Of a DNA stretch of 64,000 bases, positions 10,172-47,486 are shown one piece after another. The notes under the pieces are model-generated. The model was not told the origin of the DNA and searched no databases. It was given only the letters and a program-made list of their open reading frames with translations. Position numbers and translations under genes: made by a program. Each line of letters opens with the position of its first letter. Positions within the stretch are counted from its first letter, which is position 1. Source of the stretch: Escherichia phage vB_EcoM_112. The stretch is taken from the sequence record NC_024125.2, one strand, 5' to 3'.

Positions 10172-10642
10172 TTAATCATGTGTCCACCCCTCATCGGTAT
10201 TTGACCAAAGTCGCTGATTATCTGATCCTCGCCACAGCTTTTTAGTCGGAAGATTTTTCTCATACTTCCCATCAATAATAACATCAACATATTTAAGCAT
10301 TTCTAGTTGTTTAATATCTTCAAACTTATATCCTGTCCACAACCAAATGCTTTTATTGGGATAAAGATTTTTAATAGTTTGAACCACAGAGTGAATCACG
10401 TCTCTGTTATCAGGATAAAGAGGGTCTCCTCCAGTTATAGTTAATCCTTCTATATAATCATTATTCAAACATTCAATTAATTGTTCTAATGTTTCACCAG
10501 TGAATGGAATACCATTTCTAGCATTCCATGTTGATTTATTATAACACCCTTCACATTTATGCAAACAACCTGTAACGAAAAGAACGGTCCTGCATCCAGG
10601 GCCATTCACAAAGCAGCACGGATATATTCTGTCATAATTCAT
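10172..10642 (-). CDS. nrdG: anaerobic ribonucleotide reductase activating protein (radical SAM)
   Basis: Start at MNYDRIYPCCFVNGPGCR gives 156 aa; cysteine-rich activase motifs; adjacent to nrdD. Confidence 0.85.
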   Translation of the reverse strand: MNYDRIYPCCFVNGPGCRTVLFVTGCLHKCEGCYNKSTWNARNGIPFTGETLEQLIECLNNDYIEGLTITGGDPLYPDNRDVIHSVVQTIKNLYPNKSIWLWTGYKFEDIKQLEMLKYVDVIIDGKYEKNLPTKKLWRGSDNQRLWSNTDEGWTHD

Positions 10643-11469
10643 AATAATATCCAATTTTTCCAAGCTTCATCAGTAGAATTACAGCATTTTAGTATAAGAT
10701 GTCTAGAAACTTTTATGGCATTTGAGCACTTTTTAATTGAATCATATTTAATACCGTCAACTGAAACGGTTTTGCTAGTTGGAGAAATTTTTCCATACAT
10801 TGGATTTTTTGAACCAACTTGAAGTCCTTTTAAAGCTTTTGAAAGCTTTTGTCTAGATTCCAATGACATGGGAGAATTCTTTTTACCTTCAATAATTCGC
10901 TTGCGATGAAGTTCGCGTTCTTCTTCACTCAAAGAATTGTAATATTTTTTAACACCGTTTGATATAGATAATTTATCTTTCTCAGACCGCTCTCCAGCTA
11001 ATTTACTTCTAACATCTTTTCGCTTCATAGCTATGCTTACGGCTTTATTTAAATTTGCTTGATGCTCTGGCGTACGTTTATATTTCTTTAAAGCACGTGA
11101 AATAGCTATTTTAGTTTCTTCTGTTCTCTTTTTACCTTTATTTGCTAAACTATTTTTGCGGCGATGTTCAAGTGTCTGTTCATAGGCAGTTCCACCTTTT
11201 CCACCAGGTTTAATATTATATGTATTTTCTTTTAGACAATACTCTTCGGTTACAAGTTCAGCTTCTTTATCATACATTTGTTTTTCATTATCAAAAACAT
11301 GTAAAATTTCTTTATTAAAATTTTTTCTACCATATTTTAATAAAGCGGCACGAATCAATGTTCCTGACCCCATATAACCGTCATTTATGTTATCGGTGCT
11401 ATGCGCACCGATATATTCCTTTGAATTAATTATATTTGTTATTTTATAAATTATATAATACCTATGCAT
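10639..11469 (-). CDS. free-standing GIY-YIG homing endonuclease
   Basis: N-terminal YIIYKITNIINSKEYIGAHS GIY-YIG motif followed by a basic DNA-binding tail; sits between nrdD and nrdG. Confidence 0.8.
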   Translation of the reverse strand: MHRYYIIYKITNIINSKEYIGAHSTDNINDGYMGSGTLIRAALLKYGRKNFNKEILHVFDNEKQMYDKEAELVTEEYCLKENTYNIKPGGKGGTAYEQTLEHRRKNSLANKGKKRTEETKIAISRALKKYKRTPEHQANLNKAVSIAMKRKDVRSKLAGERSEKDKLSISNGVKKYYNSLSEEERELHRKRIIEGKKNSPMSLESRQKLSKALKGLQVGSKNPMYGKISPTSKTVSVDGIKYDSIKKCSNAIKVSRHLILKCCNSTDEAWKNWILL

Positions 11470-13279
11470 GTTTTACTCGTTTTACCATTTCTTTCATTTT
11501 ACCTAAATTCCATGGAACAACGCTAGGAGTTCCAAGATATCCGCATGTTCTTCTTATGGTATTCATCTTTTTAGGATCAGTTTCTCCACAAATAGAACAA
11601 ACAAATCCGTTTTCAGTAGGAGTCATTTCATGGGTACTTCCGCATGTAAAACATTTATCTACTGGCATATTAACACCAAAATAATCTAAATGTTGTGCAG
11701 CATAATCCCATACAGCCTCAAGACCTTTTAAGTTATTTTTCATATCAGGAAGTTCAACATAAGAAATGTGACCACCTGTTGCAATGAAATGATACGGGGC
11801 TTCGCGAGAAATCTTTTCAAACGGAGTAATATTTTCTTCTACTGAAACATGGAAACTGTTAGTATACCAGCCTTTATCAGTAACATCCTTTACACTTCCA
11901 TATTTTTCGGTATCAAGTTTACAGAAGCGATAACACAAGTTTTCAGCAGGAGTAGAATACAAACTAAAAGCAAATCCGGTTCTTTCAGTCCATTGTTTAA
12001 GATGAGTATTCATTTTAGTTAAAATTTCTTGTCCAATATCACGACCGACAAGAATATTCAATTCGTGAATACCAATGTATCCTAGAGACACTGAACTTCT
12101 ACCGTTTTTAAATAACTCAATTATGTCGTCATCAGGTTTAAGACGAACCCCGAATGCACCTTCTTGGTAAAGAATAGGAGCAACAGTTGCTTTAACTCCT
12201 TTTAAGGAACTAATTCTACACATCAAAGCTTCAAAACACAAATCCATTCGCTCATTGAACAATTCGATAAATTTCTGTTCATTGAACTGTGTTCCAATAT
12301 AAGAATCTAATGCGATACGAGGAAGATTCAGTGTTACAACACCAAGATTATTACGTCCATCAAGAATTTCATTACCAGTCGAATCTTTCCATACGCTCAA
12401 GAAACTACGGCAACCCATCGGAGAAACAGGAACAGATGAACCAGTGATAGCTTTATTGTTCTTAGCTGAAATAATATCAGGATACATCCTTTTGCTTGCG
12501 CACTCTAGAGCAAGCTGTTTAATATCATAGTTCGGGTCGTCTTTATAAAGATTAACACCTTCTTCAACGAACATAACAAGCTTAGGGAAAATAGGAGTTA
12601 TCCCATCACGACCAAGACCTTTAATACGATTTTTCAGAATTGCTTTCTGAATCATTCGTTCAGTCCAGTCAGTTCCCGTACCAAATGTAATTGTTACAAA
12701 AGGCGTTTGTCCGTTTGAACTAAAGAGAGTATTTACTTCATATTCATAAGCTTGGAATGCATCGTATACGTCTTTTTCTGTTTTAGACTGGGCATAATTC
12801 AACGCATCAGCGATTTGCCATTTTTCTGCATCCTCAATATGTTTTGCATAGGTGCGTTTAACATAAGGAGAAAGTACTTTATCTACATTCGCAAAAGTCG
12901 TTCCGCCGTATTGGTGAGAAGCAACCTGTGCAGTAATTTGTGCCATAATTGCAGTAGCAACGCCAATTGATTTAGGAGTTTCAATCTGTGCATTACCTAG
13001 CTTAAATCCGTTTTCAAGCATTCCTTTTAAATCTACTAAACAACAATTAGTAAATGGAAGAGCAGGGGAATAATCAATATCGTGGAAATGGATAATTCCG
13101 CTTTCATGCGCTTTCATAATAAAAGACGGGACCATATTTTTGGCAATGTGTTTAGACACAATACCAGCCATAAGGTCCCGTTGAGTTGGAAAAACACGAG
13201 AATCTTTATTAGCATTCTCGTTTAAAAGGTCTTTATTAGTTTTATGAATCAATCCTTCAATTTCTTTTTCAATTGTCAT
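11462..13279 (-). CDS. nrdD: anaerobic ribonucleoside-triphosphate reductase, uninterrupted
   Basis: 605 aa continuous; C-terminal glycyl-radical motif RRTCGYLG and Zn-ribbon cysteines. Confidence 0.95.
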   Translation of the reverse strand: MTIEKEIEGLIHKTNKDLLNENANKDSRVFPTQRDLMAGIVSKHIAKNMVPSFIMKAHESGIIHFHDIDYSPALPFTNCCLVDLKGMLENGFKLGNAQIETPKSIGVATAIMAQITAQVASHQYGGTTFANVDKVLSPYVKRTYAKHIEDAEKWQIADALNYAQSKTEKDVYDAFQAYEYEVNTLFSSNGQTPFVTITFGTGTDWTERMIQKAILKNRIKGLGRDGITPIFPKLVMFVEEGVNLYKDDPNYDIKQLALECASKRMYPDIISAKNNKAITGSSVPVSPMGCRSFLSVWKDSTGNEILDGRNNLGVVTLNLPRIALDSYIGTQFNEQKFIELFNERMDLCFEALMCRISSLKGVKATVAPILYQEGAFGVRLKPDDDIIELFKNGRSSVSLGYIGIHELNILVGRDIGQEILTKMNTHLKQWTERTGFAFSLYSTPAENLCYRFCKLDTEKYGSVKDVTDKGWYTNSFHVSVEENITPFEKISREAPYHFIATGGHISYVELPDMKNNLKGLEAVWDYAAQHLDYFGVNMPVDKCFTCGSTHEMTPTENGFVCSICGETDPKKMNTIRRTCGYLGTPSVVPWNLGKMKEMVKRVKHA

Positions 13280-13749
13280 TTTAAACTCTTTCTAAGCTGC
13301 TTCTTAAATGAAGCTATTAACTGTGTTTTGGTGTCAGATTCATTATATTCAAATCCTCTTTGAAGCATCTCGGCCATCATTTCCTCTTTTCCTAAACGAG
13401 AAAATTCCTTTGATTTATCTCCAACAAAGTTAGGGTGAATATTATTTTGGGTGTAATCGGATTTTAAATAAGTAAGTAAATTTTCTAACCATTCAAGATA
13501 ATCAACACCTTGTCCCTTTAAGCCAGAACGATTAAATTTATGCTTCATTTGACCTTCTGCGGCATTGCATAGATTACAAAGCAATCCACGTACCTTTCCT
13601 GCTTTTGGTCCATTTAATTCATGGTCATGATCAAGGTGATTAGCTTGAACGTCAGGATTTAGTTCTCGTTGGCAAATTAAGCATTTACCATTTTGTGCAT
13701 CATAAAATTTCTGTTTTTCTTCTTTATATAATTTGCCAGTCAATAACAT
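13276..13749 (-). CDS. 49: endonuclease VII (Holliday junction resolvase)
   Basis: 157 aa, N-terminal Cys cluster, HNH-like motif; T4 gp49 size and position. Confidence 0.9.
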   Translation of the reverse strand: MLLTGKLYKEEKQKFYDAQNGKCLICQRELNPDVQANHLDHDHELNGPKAGKVRGLLCNLCNAAEGQMKHKFNRSGLKGQGVDYLEWLENLLTYLKSDYTQNNIHPNFVGDKSKEFSRLGKEEMMAEMLQRGFEYNESDTKTQLIASFKKQLRKSLK

Positions 13750-20908: not shown

Positions 20909-20997
20909 TTACTAGTTTAATTCTAGTCATCTTTTTGATGGCAGTCCATATAATCTATTTCTGAACTGCCTTTTTGTCATAGAAGGCCTCTTATGAA

Positions 20998-21966
20998 TTA
21001 TTTCAGAAGAGTAACCTCAGCAATTTCTCCCCAACCATTTTTGTCGGTCATAATAAAGTCAGCAAGATAAAGAGCAGTACGCAGTGAAACATTGCGTAAA
21101 CGATTAACATTGACTTTCATCCATGATAATGCTTTATAAGTTTCTTCATCAGAAAGACCACGCTTTTGCATCATGTCGGTTGAAAGAATAACATCTTCAA
21201 CCCTGACCATAATTTCTTCATTAGTGTGAACACCCAAATCTAAATAAACTGAGCGGGAAACTAATGCTTGTAAATGTGGAGCAAGTTTAGTACCACGGTC
21301 TAATTCGCGGTCAATGTCAACGTTTGTGATAAAAACAATCGTTCCTTTAAATTCAAACTCACGCTCAATGCCTTTTTCTTCTAAGTAAGAAGATGCGGTA
21401 CTCCAGCAGACTTTACGGGTCTCTCCAGTGTCCAGAGCAGCTTTCAGAAGATTAAGAATGTCCATATCAGAGAAAACATCCACATCATCAATCAAAAGGA
21501 CAGAATTCTCTTCACGATTATTCCAAAGCTGCTCATAAAGACCAATACCAGAGATTTTACCGTTAATGCTTTTATATTCAATGTATCCATTATCATTTGC
21601 TTTATTTAAAGCTTTATCTAAAGAATACGTTTTACCAATACCTGCTGCACCAGAGATAATTAATGAACGAATGTTTCCGTTAATAATACCATTCGTCATC
21701 ATTCCCATAACATTAAATCTTTTATTAATGCGGGTTTTCATATCTTCATATGATTCTTTAACTTCTTCAACTTTTACACCATCATATGAAATGTCTGATT
21801 TGTAAACCCAAACACCGCGACGTTTACCGTCAATTTCAACAAAAACTTTACCATCTCCTTGTGCATCTACCGGAGCATTATCTGGGAACCATTCGCCTAA
21901 GAGCTCAAAAGTTCCAGAGATTTCTTTACCGAAGTAGATACCCTTATTGATAGTTACAGTTTTCAT
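20998..21966 (-). CDS. AAA+/P-loop ATPase
   Basis: Walker A GAAGIGKT, Walker B LLIDDVD, sensor-like FITN; start set at MKTVTINKG. Confidence 0.6.
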   Translation of the reverse strand: MKTVTINKGIYFGKEISGTFELLGEWFPDNAPVDAQGDGKVFVEIDGKRRGVWVYKSDISYDGVKVEEVKESYEDMKTRINKRFNVMGMMTNGIINGNIRSLIISGAAGIGKTYSLDKALNKANDNGYIEYKSINGKISGIGLYEQLWNNREENSVLLIDDVDVFSDMDILNLLKAALDTGETRKVCWSTASSYLEEKGIEREFEFKGTIVFITNVDIDRELDRGTKLAPHLQALVSRSVYLDLGVHTNEEIMVRVEDVILSTDMMQKRGLSDEETYKALSWMKVNVNRLRNVSLRTALYLADFIMTDKNGWGEIAEVTLLK

Positions 21967-38155: not shown

Positions 38156-38821
38156 TTAAAATTTCATTTTTCGACCTTTAAACCATCCTTCTGGAATTGG
38201 GTCAGTTTTCTTAATACGTTTAGAAACTTTTTCATCTAATGAATGAATCCACATCATACCGAATTGGGAATTCTTTTCACCTTTCTGGTGATTATTTTTG
38301 GCGTGAGATTCTTTCATTTTATTAATAGTTTCAGGAGTATGGGTCTTACCCAAGAAAGATTTAGTATTTAAAAATTTCTCTCTATACTTAGGATTATCCC
38401 AAAGCTGTTTAAACCTTTCTGAACCCATTTTACGATATTTTTCTTTAAGGTCTGGGTCGTTCTCAAATCTGGTTTTAAAAGCGGCAGCTCCTTTTAAGGA
38501 AGCTTCTTTCTTTTTATCCAAATATTCTTTAGTGTTTAAATGGTCCCAACCACCTTCACCACCTAATTTCAAATTATAAACATCAGGGCGCTTTAAAAAC
38601 TCTTCAGTCACAATATTCTTTTCTAACTCAAACATAGAGGTTTTATCGTCAAAGAACTCTAATATTTCTTTAGAAAAATTTTCTATACCATACTTATCTT
38701 GGGCTCTTTTTAATAATTTACCAGAACCCATATATCCATCATCTAAATTTTCGGTAGAATGAGCGCCTATATAGATTTTATTATTAATTTTATTTGTTAT
38801 TTTATAAATGTAATGGAACAT
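38156..38821 (-). CDS. segB: GIY-YIG homing endonuclease SegB
   Basis: 221 aa, HYIYKITNKINNKIYIGAHS GIY-YIG motif; embedded in the tRNA cluster as in T4. Confidence 0.8.
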   Translation of the reverse strand: MFHYIYKITNKINNKIYIGAHSTENLDDGYMGSGKLLKRAQDKYGIENFSKEILEFFDDKTSMFELEKNIVTEEFLKRPDVYNLKLGGEGGWDHLNTKEYLDKKKEASLKGAAAFKTRFENDPDLKEKYRKMGSERFKQLWDNPKYREKFLNTKSFLGKTHTPETINKMKESHAKNNHQKGEKNSQFGMMWIHSLDEKVSKRIKKTDPIPEGWFKGRKMKF

Positions 38822-43201: not shown

Positions 43202-43861
43202 TTAATTTATTAGACTTCTTAAACGAGCAGAAGTCATAAATGGAAATTTTTCTAAAGTTGGCTTTCGCCAATATCTCGGATGACAAGTTGATTTAAAATC
43301 AAGAACAATTTTCTTTGCTTCATCAATAGTGTTAACTCCAAAGTTATCTAACATTATTTTCTTTTCTTTTTCCCACCGTTTATTAGCTAAAGCAGATTGA
43401 AGCTTTTTGTTTTTAAATGTGTCATTTTTTCTAGAATGAGTTGTTCCTTGTGTCGGACTCCATCCTCTTCCTAAAATAAATCCCTCAGGAATTATATCTC
43501 CATCATGCAATTTTATACATCTTTTACCATTATTATAATATTTTCGTCCAGTTTGTGTATTTGAAATATTATTTGCATGTTTTCTTTTTAACCAACCATA
43601 AACTTTATTATTTCTCCTAACATATTTAGTTGAAACCGTCATTTTTATGGCTGCATAAGATAATTTTAAAGAATTTGGGTGTATTTTTACTAATAGCTGA
43701 TGTGCAACATAATGCTCTTCTGGAGTTAAATCAACCAAGTTAGAAGCACCATTACTACCGCCTAAACATTTCGGAATAATATGATGTCTTTCTTTATATC
43801 CAGTAAGGGCTCTATTGCGAGCCCTATCAATTAGTGAATTATAAATTTTTTCATAATTCAT
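43202..43861 (-). CDS. free-standing HNH homing endonuclease
   Basis: [12 protein letters not shown]...[18 protein letters not shown] motif; inserted between genes 2 and 3. Confidence 0.75.
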
Positions 43862-44685
43862 CGTACATTGCTCCAAACTTTGTTTGCAGAGAAACGTTTT
43901 CCTTTGGAGTAGAAGCTTTGGAGCGGCATCAACACAACGTTCGCCCAGTCTTTCGGGGCGATTTCAACAAGGCTACCCATAATATTACCAGGTATATATG
44001 CCTTAATCATTTGATCTGCACCCCTAAATCCTTTCACTTGACTCCAATCAATTTTTAATTTCGTTTTATTAGTAATAGTAGGTGTATTTGAATATTGCTT
44101 TAAAAGCTCTTCTAGAAACTGTTGACGAGCTTTAGGCGGAATATAGTGCAAGTTTAATCCGTACATTAAATTATGCTTACCTAAACCAAGGTAAATTATC
44201 AAAGGAAATTTATCCCAGTAAGGAAGAGTTTCCTTGTGTTTAGCATCATAAGCAAAAGCATATATTCGTCCCGGCTGCGGGCGAACAACTTTATGTCCTT
44301 TTACTTGCTTAATAGTTTCGGCAAACCACTTTCTGGTTTTATTATTAATTGCTGCACCTTCATTACGAATTTTATCACGCAATGTTTGTCTGAATGAATT
44401 TATCATAAGCAGTTGTCTTTCTTGCTTATTGAGTTTATTCATTGGTTTTGATTCAAGCTTTTGAATCTTTTCAGCCGTTTTAATTCCTGAAGCATATTTT
44501 GACATTGCTGAAGTAAACGTAGAGTATTTGATTCCTCTTTCTTCAGCAAATTGCTTTCCTGTCATTCCTTTTGCTTTGGCCTTTTTATATTCAAGACCTA
44601 TCTGAATCCATTTCTTTTCGTTTAATGATTGCTTAACCTTTGGAACTTGGGGAGTGCTTTCATTAATTATTTGAAAAATAGCCAT
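43858..44685 (-). CDS. 2: gp2 DNA-end protector
   Basis: 275 aa; T4 gp2-like sequence and position. Confidence 0.85.
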
Positions 44686-45775: not shown

Positions 45776-47486
45776 TAACCTTAATTGGTTTGTTGGTGTT
45801 GTTGAAGATAGAATGGACCCATTAAAATTAGGTCGTGTTCGTGTTCGTGTTGTTGGTCTGCATCCACCTCAAAGAGCACAAGGTGATGTAATGGGTATTC
45901 CAACTGAAAAATTACCATGGATGTCAGTTATTCAACCTATAACTTCTGCAGCAATGTCTGGAATTGGAGGCTCCGTTACTGGACCGGTAGAAGGAACTAG
46001 AGTTTATGGTCATTTTTTAGACAAATGGAAAACTAACGGAATTGTCCTTGGCACGTATGGTGGAATAGTTCGCGAAAAACCGAATAGACTTGAAGGATTT
46101 TCTGACCCAACTGGGCAATATCCTAGACGTTTAGGAAATGATACTAACGTACTAAACCAAGGCGGTGATGTAGGATATGATTCCTCTTCTAATGTTATTC
46201 AAGATAGTAACTTAGACACTGCAATAAATCCTGATGATAGACCACTATCAGAGATTCCAACTGATGATAATCCAAACATGTCAATGGCTGAAATGCTTCG
46301 CCGTGATGAAGGATTAAGACTAAAAGTTTATTGGGATACCGAAGGATATCCGACAATTGGTATTGGTCATCTTATCATGAAGCAGCCAGTTCGTGATATG
46401 GCTCAAATTAATAAAGTTTTATCAAAACAAGTTGGTCGTGAAATTACTGGAAACCCAGGTTCTATTACAATGGAAGAGGCGACGACTTTATTTGAGCGTG
46501 ATTTGGCTGATATGCAACGTGACATTAAATCACATTCTAAAGTAGGACCAGTCTGGCAAGCTGTCAACCGTTCTCGTCAAATGGCATTAGAAAATATGGC
46601 ATTTCAGATGGGTGTTGGTGGTGTAGCTAAATTTAACACAATGTTAACTGCTATGTTAGCAGGAGATTGGGAAAAAGCGTATAAAGCCGGTCGTGATTCA
46701 TTATGGTATCAACAAACAAAAGGCCGTGCATCCCGTGTTACCATGATTATTCTTACGGGAAATTTAGAATCATATGGCGTTGAAGTGAAAACCCCAGCTA
46801 GGTCTCTATCAGCAATGGCTGCTACTGTAGCTAAATCTTCTGACCCTGCTGACCCTCCTATTCCAAATGACTCGAGAATTTTATTCAAAGAACCAGTTTC
46901 TTCATATAAAGGTGAATATCCTTATGTGCATACAATGGAAACTGAAAGTGGACATATTCAGGAATTTGATGATACCCCTGGGCAAGAACGATACAGATTA
47001 GTTCATCCAACTGGAACTTATGAAGAAGTATCACCGTCAGGAAGAAGAACAAGAAAAACTGTTGATAATTTGTATGATATAACCAACGCTGATGGTAATT
47101 TTTTGGTAGCCGGTGATAAAAAGACTAACGTCGGTGGATCAGAAATTTATTACAACATGGATAATCGTCTTCACCAGATAGATGGAAGCAATACAATATT
47201 TGTACGTGGCGACGAAACGAAAACTGTTGAAGGTAATGGAACTATCCTAGTTAAAGGTAATGTTACTATTGTAGTTGAAGGCAATGCTGACATTACAGTT
47301 AAAGGAGATGCTACCACTTTAGTTGAAGGAAATCAAACTAATACAGTAAATGGAAATCTTTCTTGGAAAGTTGCTGGGACAGTTGATTGGGACGTTGGTG
47401 GTGATTGGACAGAAAAAATGGCATCTATGAGTTCTATTTCATCTGGTCAATACACAATTGATGGATCGAGGATTGACATTGGCTAA
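45759..47486 (+). CDS. 5: gp5 baseplate hub and tail lysozyme (cell-puncturing device)
   Basis: 575 aa; N-terminal OB domain, central lysozyme domain (RRDEGLRLKVYWDTEGYPTIGIGHLI), C-terminal VxGxxxxx beta-helix repeats. Confidence 0.95.
   Translation: MEMISNNLNWFVGVVEDRMDPLKLGRVRVRVVGLHPPQRAQGDVMGIPTEKLPWMSVIQPITSAAMSGIGGSVTGPVEGTRVYGHFLDKWKTNGIVLGTYGGIVREKPNRLEGFSDPTGQYPRRLGNDTNVLNQGGDVGYDSSSNVIQDSNLDTAINPDDRPLSEIPTDDNPNMSMAEMLRRDEGLRLKVYWDTEGYPTIGIGHLIMKQPVRDMAQINKVLSKQVGREITGNPGSITMEEATTLFERDLADMQRDIKSHSKVGPVWQAVNRSRQMALENMAFQMGVGGVAKFNTMLTAMLAGDWEKAYKAGRDSLWYQQTKGRASRVTMIILTGNLESYGVEVKTPARSLSAMAATVAKSSDPADPPIPNDSRILFKEPVSSYKGEYPYVHTMETESGHIQEFDDTPGQERYRLVHPTGTYEEVSPSGRRTRKTVDNLYDITNADGNFLVAGDKKTNVGGSEIYYNMDNRLHQIDGSNTIFVRGDETKTVEGNGTILVKGNVTIVVEGNADITVKGDATTLVEGNQTNTVNGNLSWKVAGTVDWDVGGDWTEKMASMSSISSGQYTIDGSRIDIG

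Follow-up and report, generated by a model that had tools for sequence, protein, structure and literature searches.

The 276-codon open reading frame at 10639-11469, on the minus strand between nrdD and nrdG, is with high confidence segH, which encodes a free-standing GIY-YIG homing endonuclease in T-even-type phages. The frame lies in a window of 64,000 nt, the whole stretch of DNA analyzed here (Escherichia phage vB_EcoM_112, NC_024125.2). Its predicted protein, which begins MHRYYIIYKITNIINSKEYIGAHS, matches the SegH protein of phage RB3 (ABI48949.1, from AY262138.2) at 275 of 276 residues (99.6%), and the two proteins are of equal length (276 aa). The RB3 sequence is a short GenBank record from the laboratory that named the gene; it is annotated nrdD-segH-nrdG and has a sister record for phage LZ2. 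Orthologues are annotated segH in T6 and PP01, with 98.9% nucleotide identity to the T6 gene, and the protein matched PHROG 314, 'homing endonuclease', at 9.7e-60. We find the same gene, in the same position and with the same overlaps with nrdD and nrdG, as in RB3, LZ2, T6 and PP01; what sets this copy apart from that of RB3 is a single amino-acid difference and a host genome that is a different mosaic Tequatrovirus.

The first-pass annotation of this DNA had treated the gene as a new lead. The element is real and had been rightly read, but it is already known, having been named and characterized, by biochemical and genetic tests, in 2005 and annotated in T6. According to the title of the 2005 paper, segH encodes a homing endonuclease and takes the place of mobC (Sandegren, Nord and Sjoberg, Nucleic Acids Res 2005;33:6203), and a later preprint, in its passage on this slot, describes MobC between nrdD and nrdG as being replaced in some genomes by the GIY-YIG gene segH. 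The proposal of an intronless homing endonuclease aimed at the nrd region is supported by the SegH identity and, as far as these statements go, by that literature. The segH locus also illustrates that such an endonuclease can be recognized from gene arrangement alone.

Locus organization

The source is a T4-type coliphage of the genus Tequatrovirus, with positions 1-25000 of the window about 96-97% identical to EC128, SHFML-26 and ECO4. The minus strand carries, in order, gene 49 (endonuclease VII, 13276-13749), nrdD, the 276-aa segH frame and nrdG:

11462..13279, minus strand: nrdD, large subunit of the anaerobic ribonucleotide reductase, 605 aa, continuous (open reading frame, Pfam, colinearity with the T4 exons)
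10639..11469, minus strand: segH coding sequence, 276 aa plus stop (open reading frame, identity to RB3 SegH, PHROG 314)
10172..10642, minus strand: nrdG, activase, 156 aa, with an ATG start and beginning MNYDRIY (matches to Pfam Fer4_12 and Radical_SAM)

NrdD had been described as an uninterrupted frame of 605 aa, and this was confirmed by the open reading frame and by a match to Pfam NRDD of 572.9 bits across the full model, with Gly_radical matched as well. The segH start codon (ATG, 11469-11467) lies upstream of the nrdD stop codon (TAG, 11464-11462), giving a junction ATGcaTAG in which the two frames overlap by 8 nt. The separation of 2 nt previously reported between these codons is correct, but the segH start is on the upstream side of the nrdD stop. 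At the other end, as had also been noted, the segH stop and the nrdG start share the ATGA at 10642-10639, a 4-nt overlap. The TTG start at 10663 given for nrdG in the list of open reading frames is a mere upstream extension.

Domain architecture and GIY-YIG membership

Pfam scans and structural modeling divide SegH into an N-terminal catalytic domain, a helical linker and a possible C-terminal module:

11185..11469, minus strand: GIY-YIG catalytic domain, residues 1-95 (Pfam SegE_GIY-YIG, AlphaFold, Foldseek)
10786..11172, minus strand: helical linker with NUMOD3 repeats, residues 100-228 approximately (Pfam NUMOD3, helices of the model)
10693..10794, minus strand: possible C-terminal I-TevI-like helix-turn-helix DNA-binding module, residues 226-259 (tentative)

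The catalytic domain contains the GIY-YIG motif pair as YIIY at residues 5-8 and YIG at residues 19-21. In an alignment of 38 sequences Y8, Y19, G21, E69 and N85 are invariant, and E71 is conserved in at least 90%. The YIIY and YIG motifs align with the GIY and YVG of I-TevI, N85 aligns with I-TevI N90, and E69 and E71 fall within one to two columns of I-TevI E75. No SegH residue could be confidently equated with the catalytic arginine of I-TevI, R27, the aligned arginine being I-TevI R47. The SegE_GIY-YIG model (PF19835) was matched at 30.5 bits by residues 1-112 alone, above the cut-off of 25, with the whole protein scoring just 20.8 bits; the generic GIY-YIG model (PF01541) scored 16.7 bits, below its cut-off of 22.6.

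With the 38-sequence alignment as input, AlphaFold modeled residues 1-90 at a pLDDT of 94-98. A Foldseek search of the PDB returned the I-TevI catalytic domain (1MK0, 1LN0) as its top three matches and the only convincing ones, with a probability of 1.00 and TM scores of 0.62-0.64; for 1MK0 the TM score, normalized to the target, was 0.64, with an rmsd of 3.2 Å across 95 columns. Searching the PDB with the single SegH sequence (phmmer) gave no meaningful match, and the 38-sequence profile matched I-TevI only, at a marginal E-value of 0.05. Because these sequence searches of the PDB were empty or marginal, the family assignment was settled by fold comparison.

Downstream of the catalytic domain, NUMOD3 was matched at 33.8 bits (cut-off 20.4). 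When the C-terminal part was scanned alone, three NUMOD3 stretches were found, the best at residues 200-228, and the model shows a run of helix from H100 to H213. Residues 226-259 are tentatively assigned as an I-TevI-like C-terminal DNA-binding module: the I-TevI_DNA-bd model (PF20987) scored 17.4-17.8 bits against a cut-off of 27, in a region with pLDDT below 50. Pfam scans revealed no zinc finger in SegH. The intact motifs and the single substitution relative to the RB3 protein suggest that the copy described here is probably active.

A cassette with recoded flanks

Most Tequatroviruses have an empty site, at which the nrdD stop overlaps the nrdG start directly (...CACCAATGAATTA...). The empty site was matched in one piece of about 794-796 nt in most of 60 sampled rows, spread across 836 matching records. 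Comparison of the window by BLAST with two phages of this kind, T2H and RB51, gave homology that ends at 11487 and restarts at 10642, which delimits the cassette, and counts of mismatches in the flanks revealed a recoded segment at the end of nrdD:

10643..11486, minus strand: cassette, 844 nt in place of 21 nt, bounded by the points where homology to empty-site phages can no longer be aligned (BLAST against T2H and RB51)
11462..11548, minus strand: segH-linked recoded 3' end of nrdD, about 87 nt (mismatch counts in the flanks)

The NrdD tail reads GTPSVVPWNLGKMKEMVKRVKHA here compared to GNPNERGFNLGKNKEIMHRVKHQ in phages lacking segH, and the recoding begins directly after the glycyl-radical motif RTCGYLG. 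Across the last 87-90 nt or so of nrdD we counted about 34 mismatches to T2H, RB51 and T4 and only 0-3 to the segH carriers T6, RB3 and EC128, whereas the rest of the gene diverges from T2H, RB51 and T4 by about 3.5%. The recoded haplotype was present in all carriers examined (the window, T6, RB3 and EC128) and also in KM16, ELT1 and PD112. A similar linkage is found on the other side of the cassette, where the first 30 nt of nrdG (10613-10642) are a segH-linked variant encoding I6 and C10 in place of F6 and D10, with 7-9 mismatches to empty-site phages and one to segH carriers. Recoded flanks of this kind in nrdD and nrdG are the expected signature of self-immunity and co-conversion. The complete replacement of the NrdD C-terminal tail by the Tequatrovirus cassette may itself be the immunity determinant.

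Distribution, selection and spread

Reportedly, segH was present in three of 18 phages screened when the gene was first described, and its product is said to cut close to its own locus. We found segH DNA in about 71 phage records at 97-99.9% nucleotide identity, and the 87-nt variant of the nrdD tail was limited to 79 phage records. The copy in the window is 99.9% identical to those of EC128, EC121 and F2, and the 25 kb around it match EC128 at about 96%. Because copies identical at 99.9% are found in genomes with about 4% divergence elsewhere, segH appears to have spread recently. The gene also occurs in a second genus, in Moonvirus KM16, and comparison with that copy gave a dN/dS of 0.18 for the whole gene and 0.13 for the catalytic domain, indicating purifying selection. 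PD112, which is counted among the segH matches, carries a remnant with an internal deletion of 577 nt and shows the usual decay phase of homing elements. Together, purifying selection, near-identical copies and presence across genera fit an element that is still spreading and sometimes decaying.

These data bear on an alternative that we consider improbable, in which segH is present by descent and is now an inactive or domesticated passenger, kept through its embedding in the nrdD-nrdG operon rather than by homing, where it would supply the C-terminal codons of NrdD and translational coupling to nrdG. The cassette does provide the last eight or so codons of nrdD and overlaps both neighbors, so that clean deletion is constrained, and embedded host signals are held to favor retention of endonuclease genes (review by Edgell et al.). 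The decayed copy in PD112 is likewise compatible with loss of function. A passenger would not be expected to show the low dN/dS ratios, to retain every invariant position of the GIY-YIG family, or to differ at one residue in 276 from the RB3 protein, which comes from a laboratory reporting activity; the recent spread of near-identical copies also argues against it.

Two further observations concern the nrdD end of the cassette. ELT1 has the segH-type tail and no intact segH; its tail passes at CATGCATAGG, which both nrdD tail haplotypes contain, into what is left of a T4-type tail, and mobC follows. Hybrids such as ELT1 would record direct competition of two endonuclease genes for one slot. 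SegH homologues with 46-48% identity were found directly after nrdD in the Pseudotevenvirus PF-CE2 and in a 175-kb metagenomic contig, with nrdG 2.5 kb away. It is possible, though doubtful on present data, that the SegH family specifically tracks the 3' end of nrdD, just past the glycyl-radical motif, across genera. Three observations possibly go slightly beyond the literature consulted: the detailed make-up of the linked nrdD tail, the hybrid in ELT1 and the remote homologues located after nrdD; the position of the cleavage site, at least, may already be given by Sandegren et al. (2005).

The nrdD intron site is empty and independent of segH

The nrdD gene in the window is colinear with both exons of T4 nrdD, as determined by BLAST and reconstruction of the splice junction. 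Alignment with the T4 gene, which had been proposed as a check, places the vacant insertion point of the T4 intron within nrdD:

12741..12742, minus strand: empty site of the 1033-nt group I intron of T4 nrdD (GCTTATGAAT|ATGAAGTA; BLAST against T4)

Rfam at the gathering threshold identified no group I intron in the whole 64,000-nt window. The T4 intron with its endonuclease I-TevII is absent, as the first-pass annotation had concluded, and a cryptic intron in nrdD was rejected on the basis of colinearity with the spliced T4 exons and the lack of an Rfam match. The same annotation held that the endonuclease stands here instead of the intron, which did not survive comparison with other genomes. 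The intron with I-TevII and segH occur together in EC128, FL23 and FL44; T4 has the nrdD intron and mobC, the source phage has segH alone, and most relatives have neither. Since EC128 carries both, the nrdD intron and segH are independent elements, located about 1.27 kb apart.

We consider it highly improbable that a cryptic or degenerate group I intron, or some other element carried by a ribozyme, lies between nrdD and nrdG with the segH frame as its endonuclease. The nearest solved fold is that of the intron-encoded I-TevI, SegH weakly resembles I-TevII (30% over 128 aa), and the sole NCBIfam match was TIGR01453, 'group I intron endonuclease', but this match scored 52 bits, below the cut-off of 56.05. 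Moreover, the overlaps of the frame with nrdD (8 nt) and nrdG (4 nt) leave no space for a non-coding RNA, the cassette replaces 21 nt between two genes and splits neither, and Rfam identified no group I intron in the window. A chance open frame or annotation artefact on the nrd strand, for which nothing speaks apart from an AT-rich composition that favors long frames, is just as improbable and is refuted by the domain matches, by the confident modeling of the fold, and by the purifying selection on the gene and its conservation across 71 genomes.

Comparison with known endonucleases

The free-standing homing endonuclease SegH occupies the slot that holds mobC in T4. The first-pass annotation was unaware that T4 carries any endonuclease gene at this position; it had named the same endonuclease in the T4 slot as evidence that would count against its reading, and we found that T4 has the unrelated HNH gene mobC there. 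In the review by Edgell et al., mobC is listed as an HNH-family gene inserted at nrdG/nrdD in T4, and the activity of MobC as not determined. Like segH, T4 mobC has no promoter of its own in the operon and overlaps nrdD, its upstream neighbor. The two products belong to different families (HNH and GIY-YIG), and the two genes differ in how they meet their neighbors: mobC opens by repeating the first 17 nt or so of nrdG and keeps the nrdD tail of the T4 or empty type, whereas segH brings a recoded tail. A relationship between them was rejected for want of significant protein similarity, the best BLASTP comparison of SegH with T4 MobC having an E-value of 0.51 and SegH showing no HNH match in Pfam. 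Two unrelated endonuclease genes, segH and mobC, contend for the slot at the nrdD/nrdG junction, irrespective of the nrdD intron.

I-TevII, like SegH, is a GIY-YIG enzyme that targets the anaerobic reductase gene, and their distant similarity (the 30% over 128 aa given above) has an E-value of 4e-6. Unlike SegH it is encoded in an intron, at the equivalent of window position 12741/12742, upstream of segH. I-TevI, the endonuclease of the td intron, shares the catalytic fold of SegH (1MK0 and 1LN0) and its layout, in which a catalytic domain is followed by an extended linker with small DNA-binding modules and a C-terminal module; it differs in sequence (about 22-25% identity), and SegH is free-standing and has NUMOD3 repeats.

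Among free-standing enzymes, T4 SegA-SegG, which are associated with intronless homing and marker exclusion, have in common with SegH the SegE_GIY-YIG N-terminal family, an intronless-homing lifestyle and a co-conversion signature in the flanks. Their insertion sites and targets are other than those of SegH, and the similarity is confined to the N-terminal 95-145 residues or so. SegE-type proteins are about 45% identical to SegH over residues 17-109, and other seg-like matches reach 40-57%. The segH locus displays the textbook signs of homing: the element is present in some phages and absent from others, carriers have a recoded target, copies in diverged genomes are nearly identical, and decayed remnants occur.

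Expression and a proposed homing cycle

We scanned the locus for two classes of promoter, those of the sigma-70 type and those with the late consensus. The late promoter TATAAATA was absent from the nrdD-nrdG region, and no sigma-70-like site was found on the coding strand between 10566 and 13277, which covers segH and most of nrdD. The gene appears to lie inside the nrdD-nrdG transcription unit with no detectable promoter of its own of either class. For overlapping endonuclease genes of T4, weak termination-coupled translation has been proposed (Edgell et al.), and segH would likewise be translated at a low level, probably by ribosomes that re-initiate at its ATG within the last codons of nrdD.

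In intronless homing, a naive allele is cut and its repair copies the endonuclease gene together with neighboring markers (PMC2988022). Applied to this locus, co-infection with an empty-site relative, in which nrdD abuts nrdG, would allow SegH to bind the other genome through its NUMOD3 and C-terminal modules. The I-TevI-like catalytic domain would then introduce a double-strand break near the nrdD/nrdG junction, and recombinational repair on the segH-carrying template would copy segH and its flanks, that is, intronless homing with co-conversion. The carrier genome would be protected by the recoded nrdD and nrdG ends (about 87 and 30 nt) of its cassette. Within the junction, we infer from gene order that the SegH target more likely lies in the 3' end of nrdD than in nrdG, because the homologues in PF-CE2 and the metagenomic contig follow nrdD at a distance from nrdG.

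RNA folding of the segH message identified one structured element:

11391..11413, minus strand: perfect 9-bp hairpin with a 5-nt loop in the segH mRNA, 56 nt past the ATG (RNA folding)

A role for this hairpin in hiding the segH start was rejected because of its location downstream of the ATG. The stem-loop is retained in the centroid fold, and the surrounding region of 131 nt has a z-score of -2.2.

Recombinant and degenerate segH loci

The recoded segH-type tail of nrdD, linked to the GIY-YIG endonuclease gene segH, is found both at a hybrid locus and beside a decayed copy of the gene. In ELT1, the segH-type tail runs to ...AAACATGCATAG and is followed by GGTTAAACACCAATGA, a remnant of the T4-type tail, and then by mobC, the HNH endonuclease gene that fills this slot in T4. 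The crossover lies within CATGCATAGG, a stretch that the ancestral nrdD tail has in common with the start of segH.

ELT1 locus (L011) 1320-1345, window equivalent 11462-11475: hybrid junction

In phage vB_vPM_PD112 (L012, about 1200-1440), segH is degenerate: a 577-nt internal deletion has removed all but ~139 nt at its 5' end and ~115 nt at its 3' end. The segH-type nrdD tail is still present.

RNA structures at segH and its distant homologues

In Pseudotevenvirus PF-CE2, as in a 175-kb metagenome contig, ~53 nt separate nrdD from the distant SegH homologue, and in both this spacer carries a stem, TTAGCGCC...GGGCGCTAA, over a GAGGG ribosome-binding site. The arrangement resembles that of I-TevI, in which a hairpin controls translation. 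Unlike these homologues, segH of the window has no comparable structure over its start. Inside its coding sequence, a hairpin falls on the catalytic-motif codons for YIGAHSTD; all close segH copies keep it, but they are too alike for covariation to be read.

L007 2906-2961 and L008 3949-4003: nrdD-to-SegH-homologue spacer regions of PF-CE2 and the 175-kb metagenome contig
Window 11391-11413, minus strand: perfect 9-bp palindromic hairpin within segH

The empty nrdD intron site

Within the 25 nt downstream of the site at which T4 nrdD carries its intron, six positions differ from T4 exon 2, and at these same six positions the window agrees with the intron-less T6 and RB51. Co-conversion with the intron may have produced the differences in T4; alternatively, they may reflect lowered susceptibility of the window nrdD allele to I-TevII.

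Window 12716-12741, minus strand: the 25 nt that follow the empty nrdD intron site on its exon-2 side

Other endonuclease genes and differences from T6

A mob-like HNH ORF lies in an insert (window about 43204-43873) that is missing from T6 in its entirety. Its product shares 33% identity with T4 MobC across 134 aa, and 'homing endonuclease' ORFs in RB32 and RB33 match it at 99.5% identity; a Pfam search of the 219-aa ORF gave no match. It is a further free-standing endonuclease gene of the window.

Window 43202-43861, minus strand: mob-like HNH ORF, 219 aa, between genes 3 and 2

Three T6 ORFs have no counterpart in the window (sites at 2972-2979, 20982-21017 and 47464-47478), indicating that endonuclease-gene content varies slot by slot among close relatives.

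T6, between genes 46 and 46.1: T6ORF054, a 285-aa ORF without an assigned function
T6, between nrdC.9 and nrdC.10: RB32ORF093c, seg-like
T6, after gene 5: T6ncORF142, seg-like

Around the tRNA cluster and its segB-type gene, identity to T6 is only ~85%, compared with ~96% elsewhere. The tRNA sets also differ, the window having Ser and Pro tRNAs, and the Tyr tRNA of T6 was not found in it. ARAGORN called a 94-nt tRNA-Lys(UUU) that the Rfam tRNA model did not report at its gathering threshold, and this may be a false call or else a T4-type small stable RNA.

Window 38156-38821, minus strand: segB-type GIY-YIG gene within the tRNA cluster; it matches Pfam GIY-YIG at 28.7 bits
Window 37809-37902, minus strand: ARAGORN tRNA-Lys(UUU) call, downstream of tRNA-Arg

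Window 30152-32838 (2.7 kb, between regB and e) has no T6 counterpart; by position on the T4 map, it presumably matches the vs.3-vs.8/denV/ipII/ipIII region of T4.
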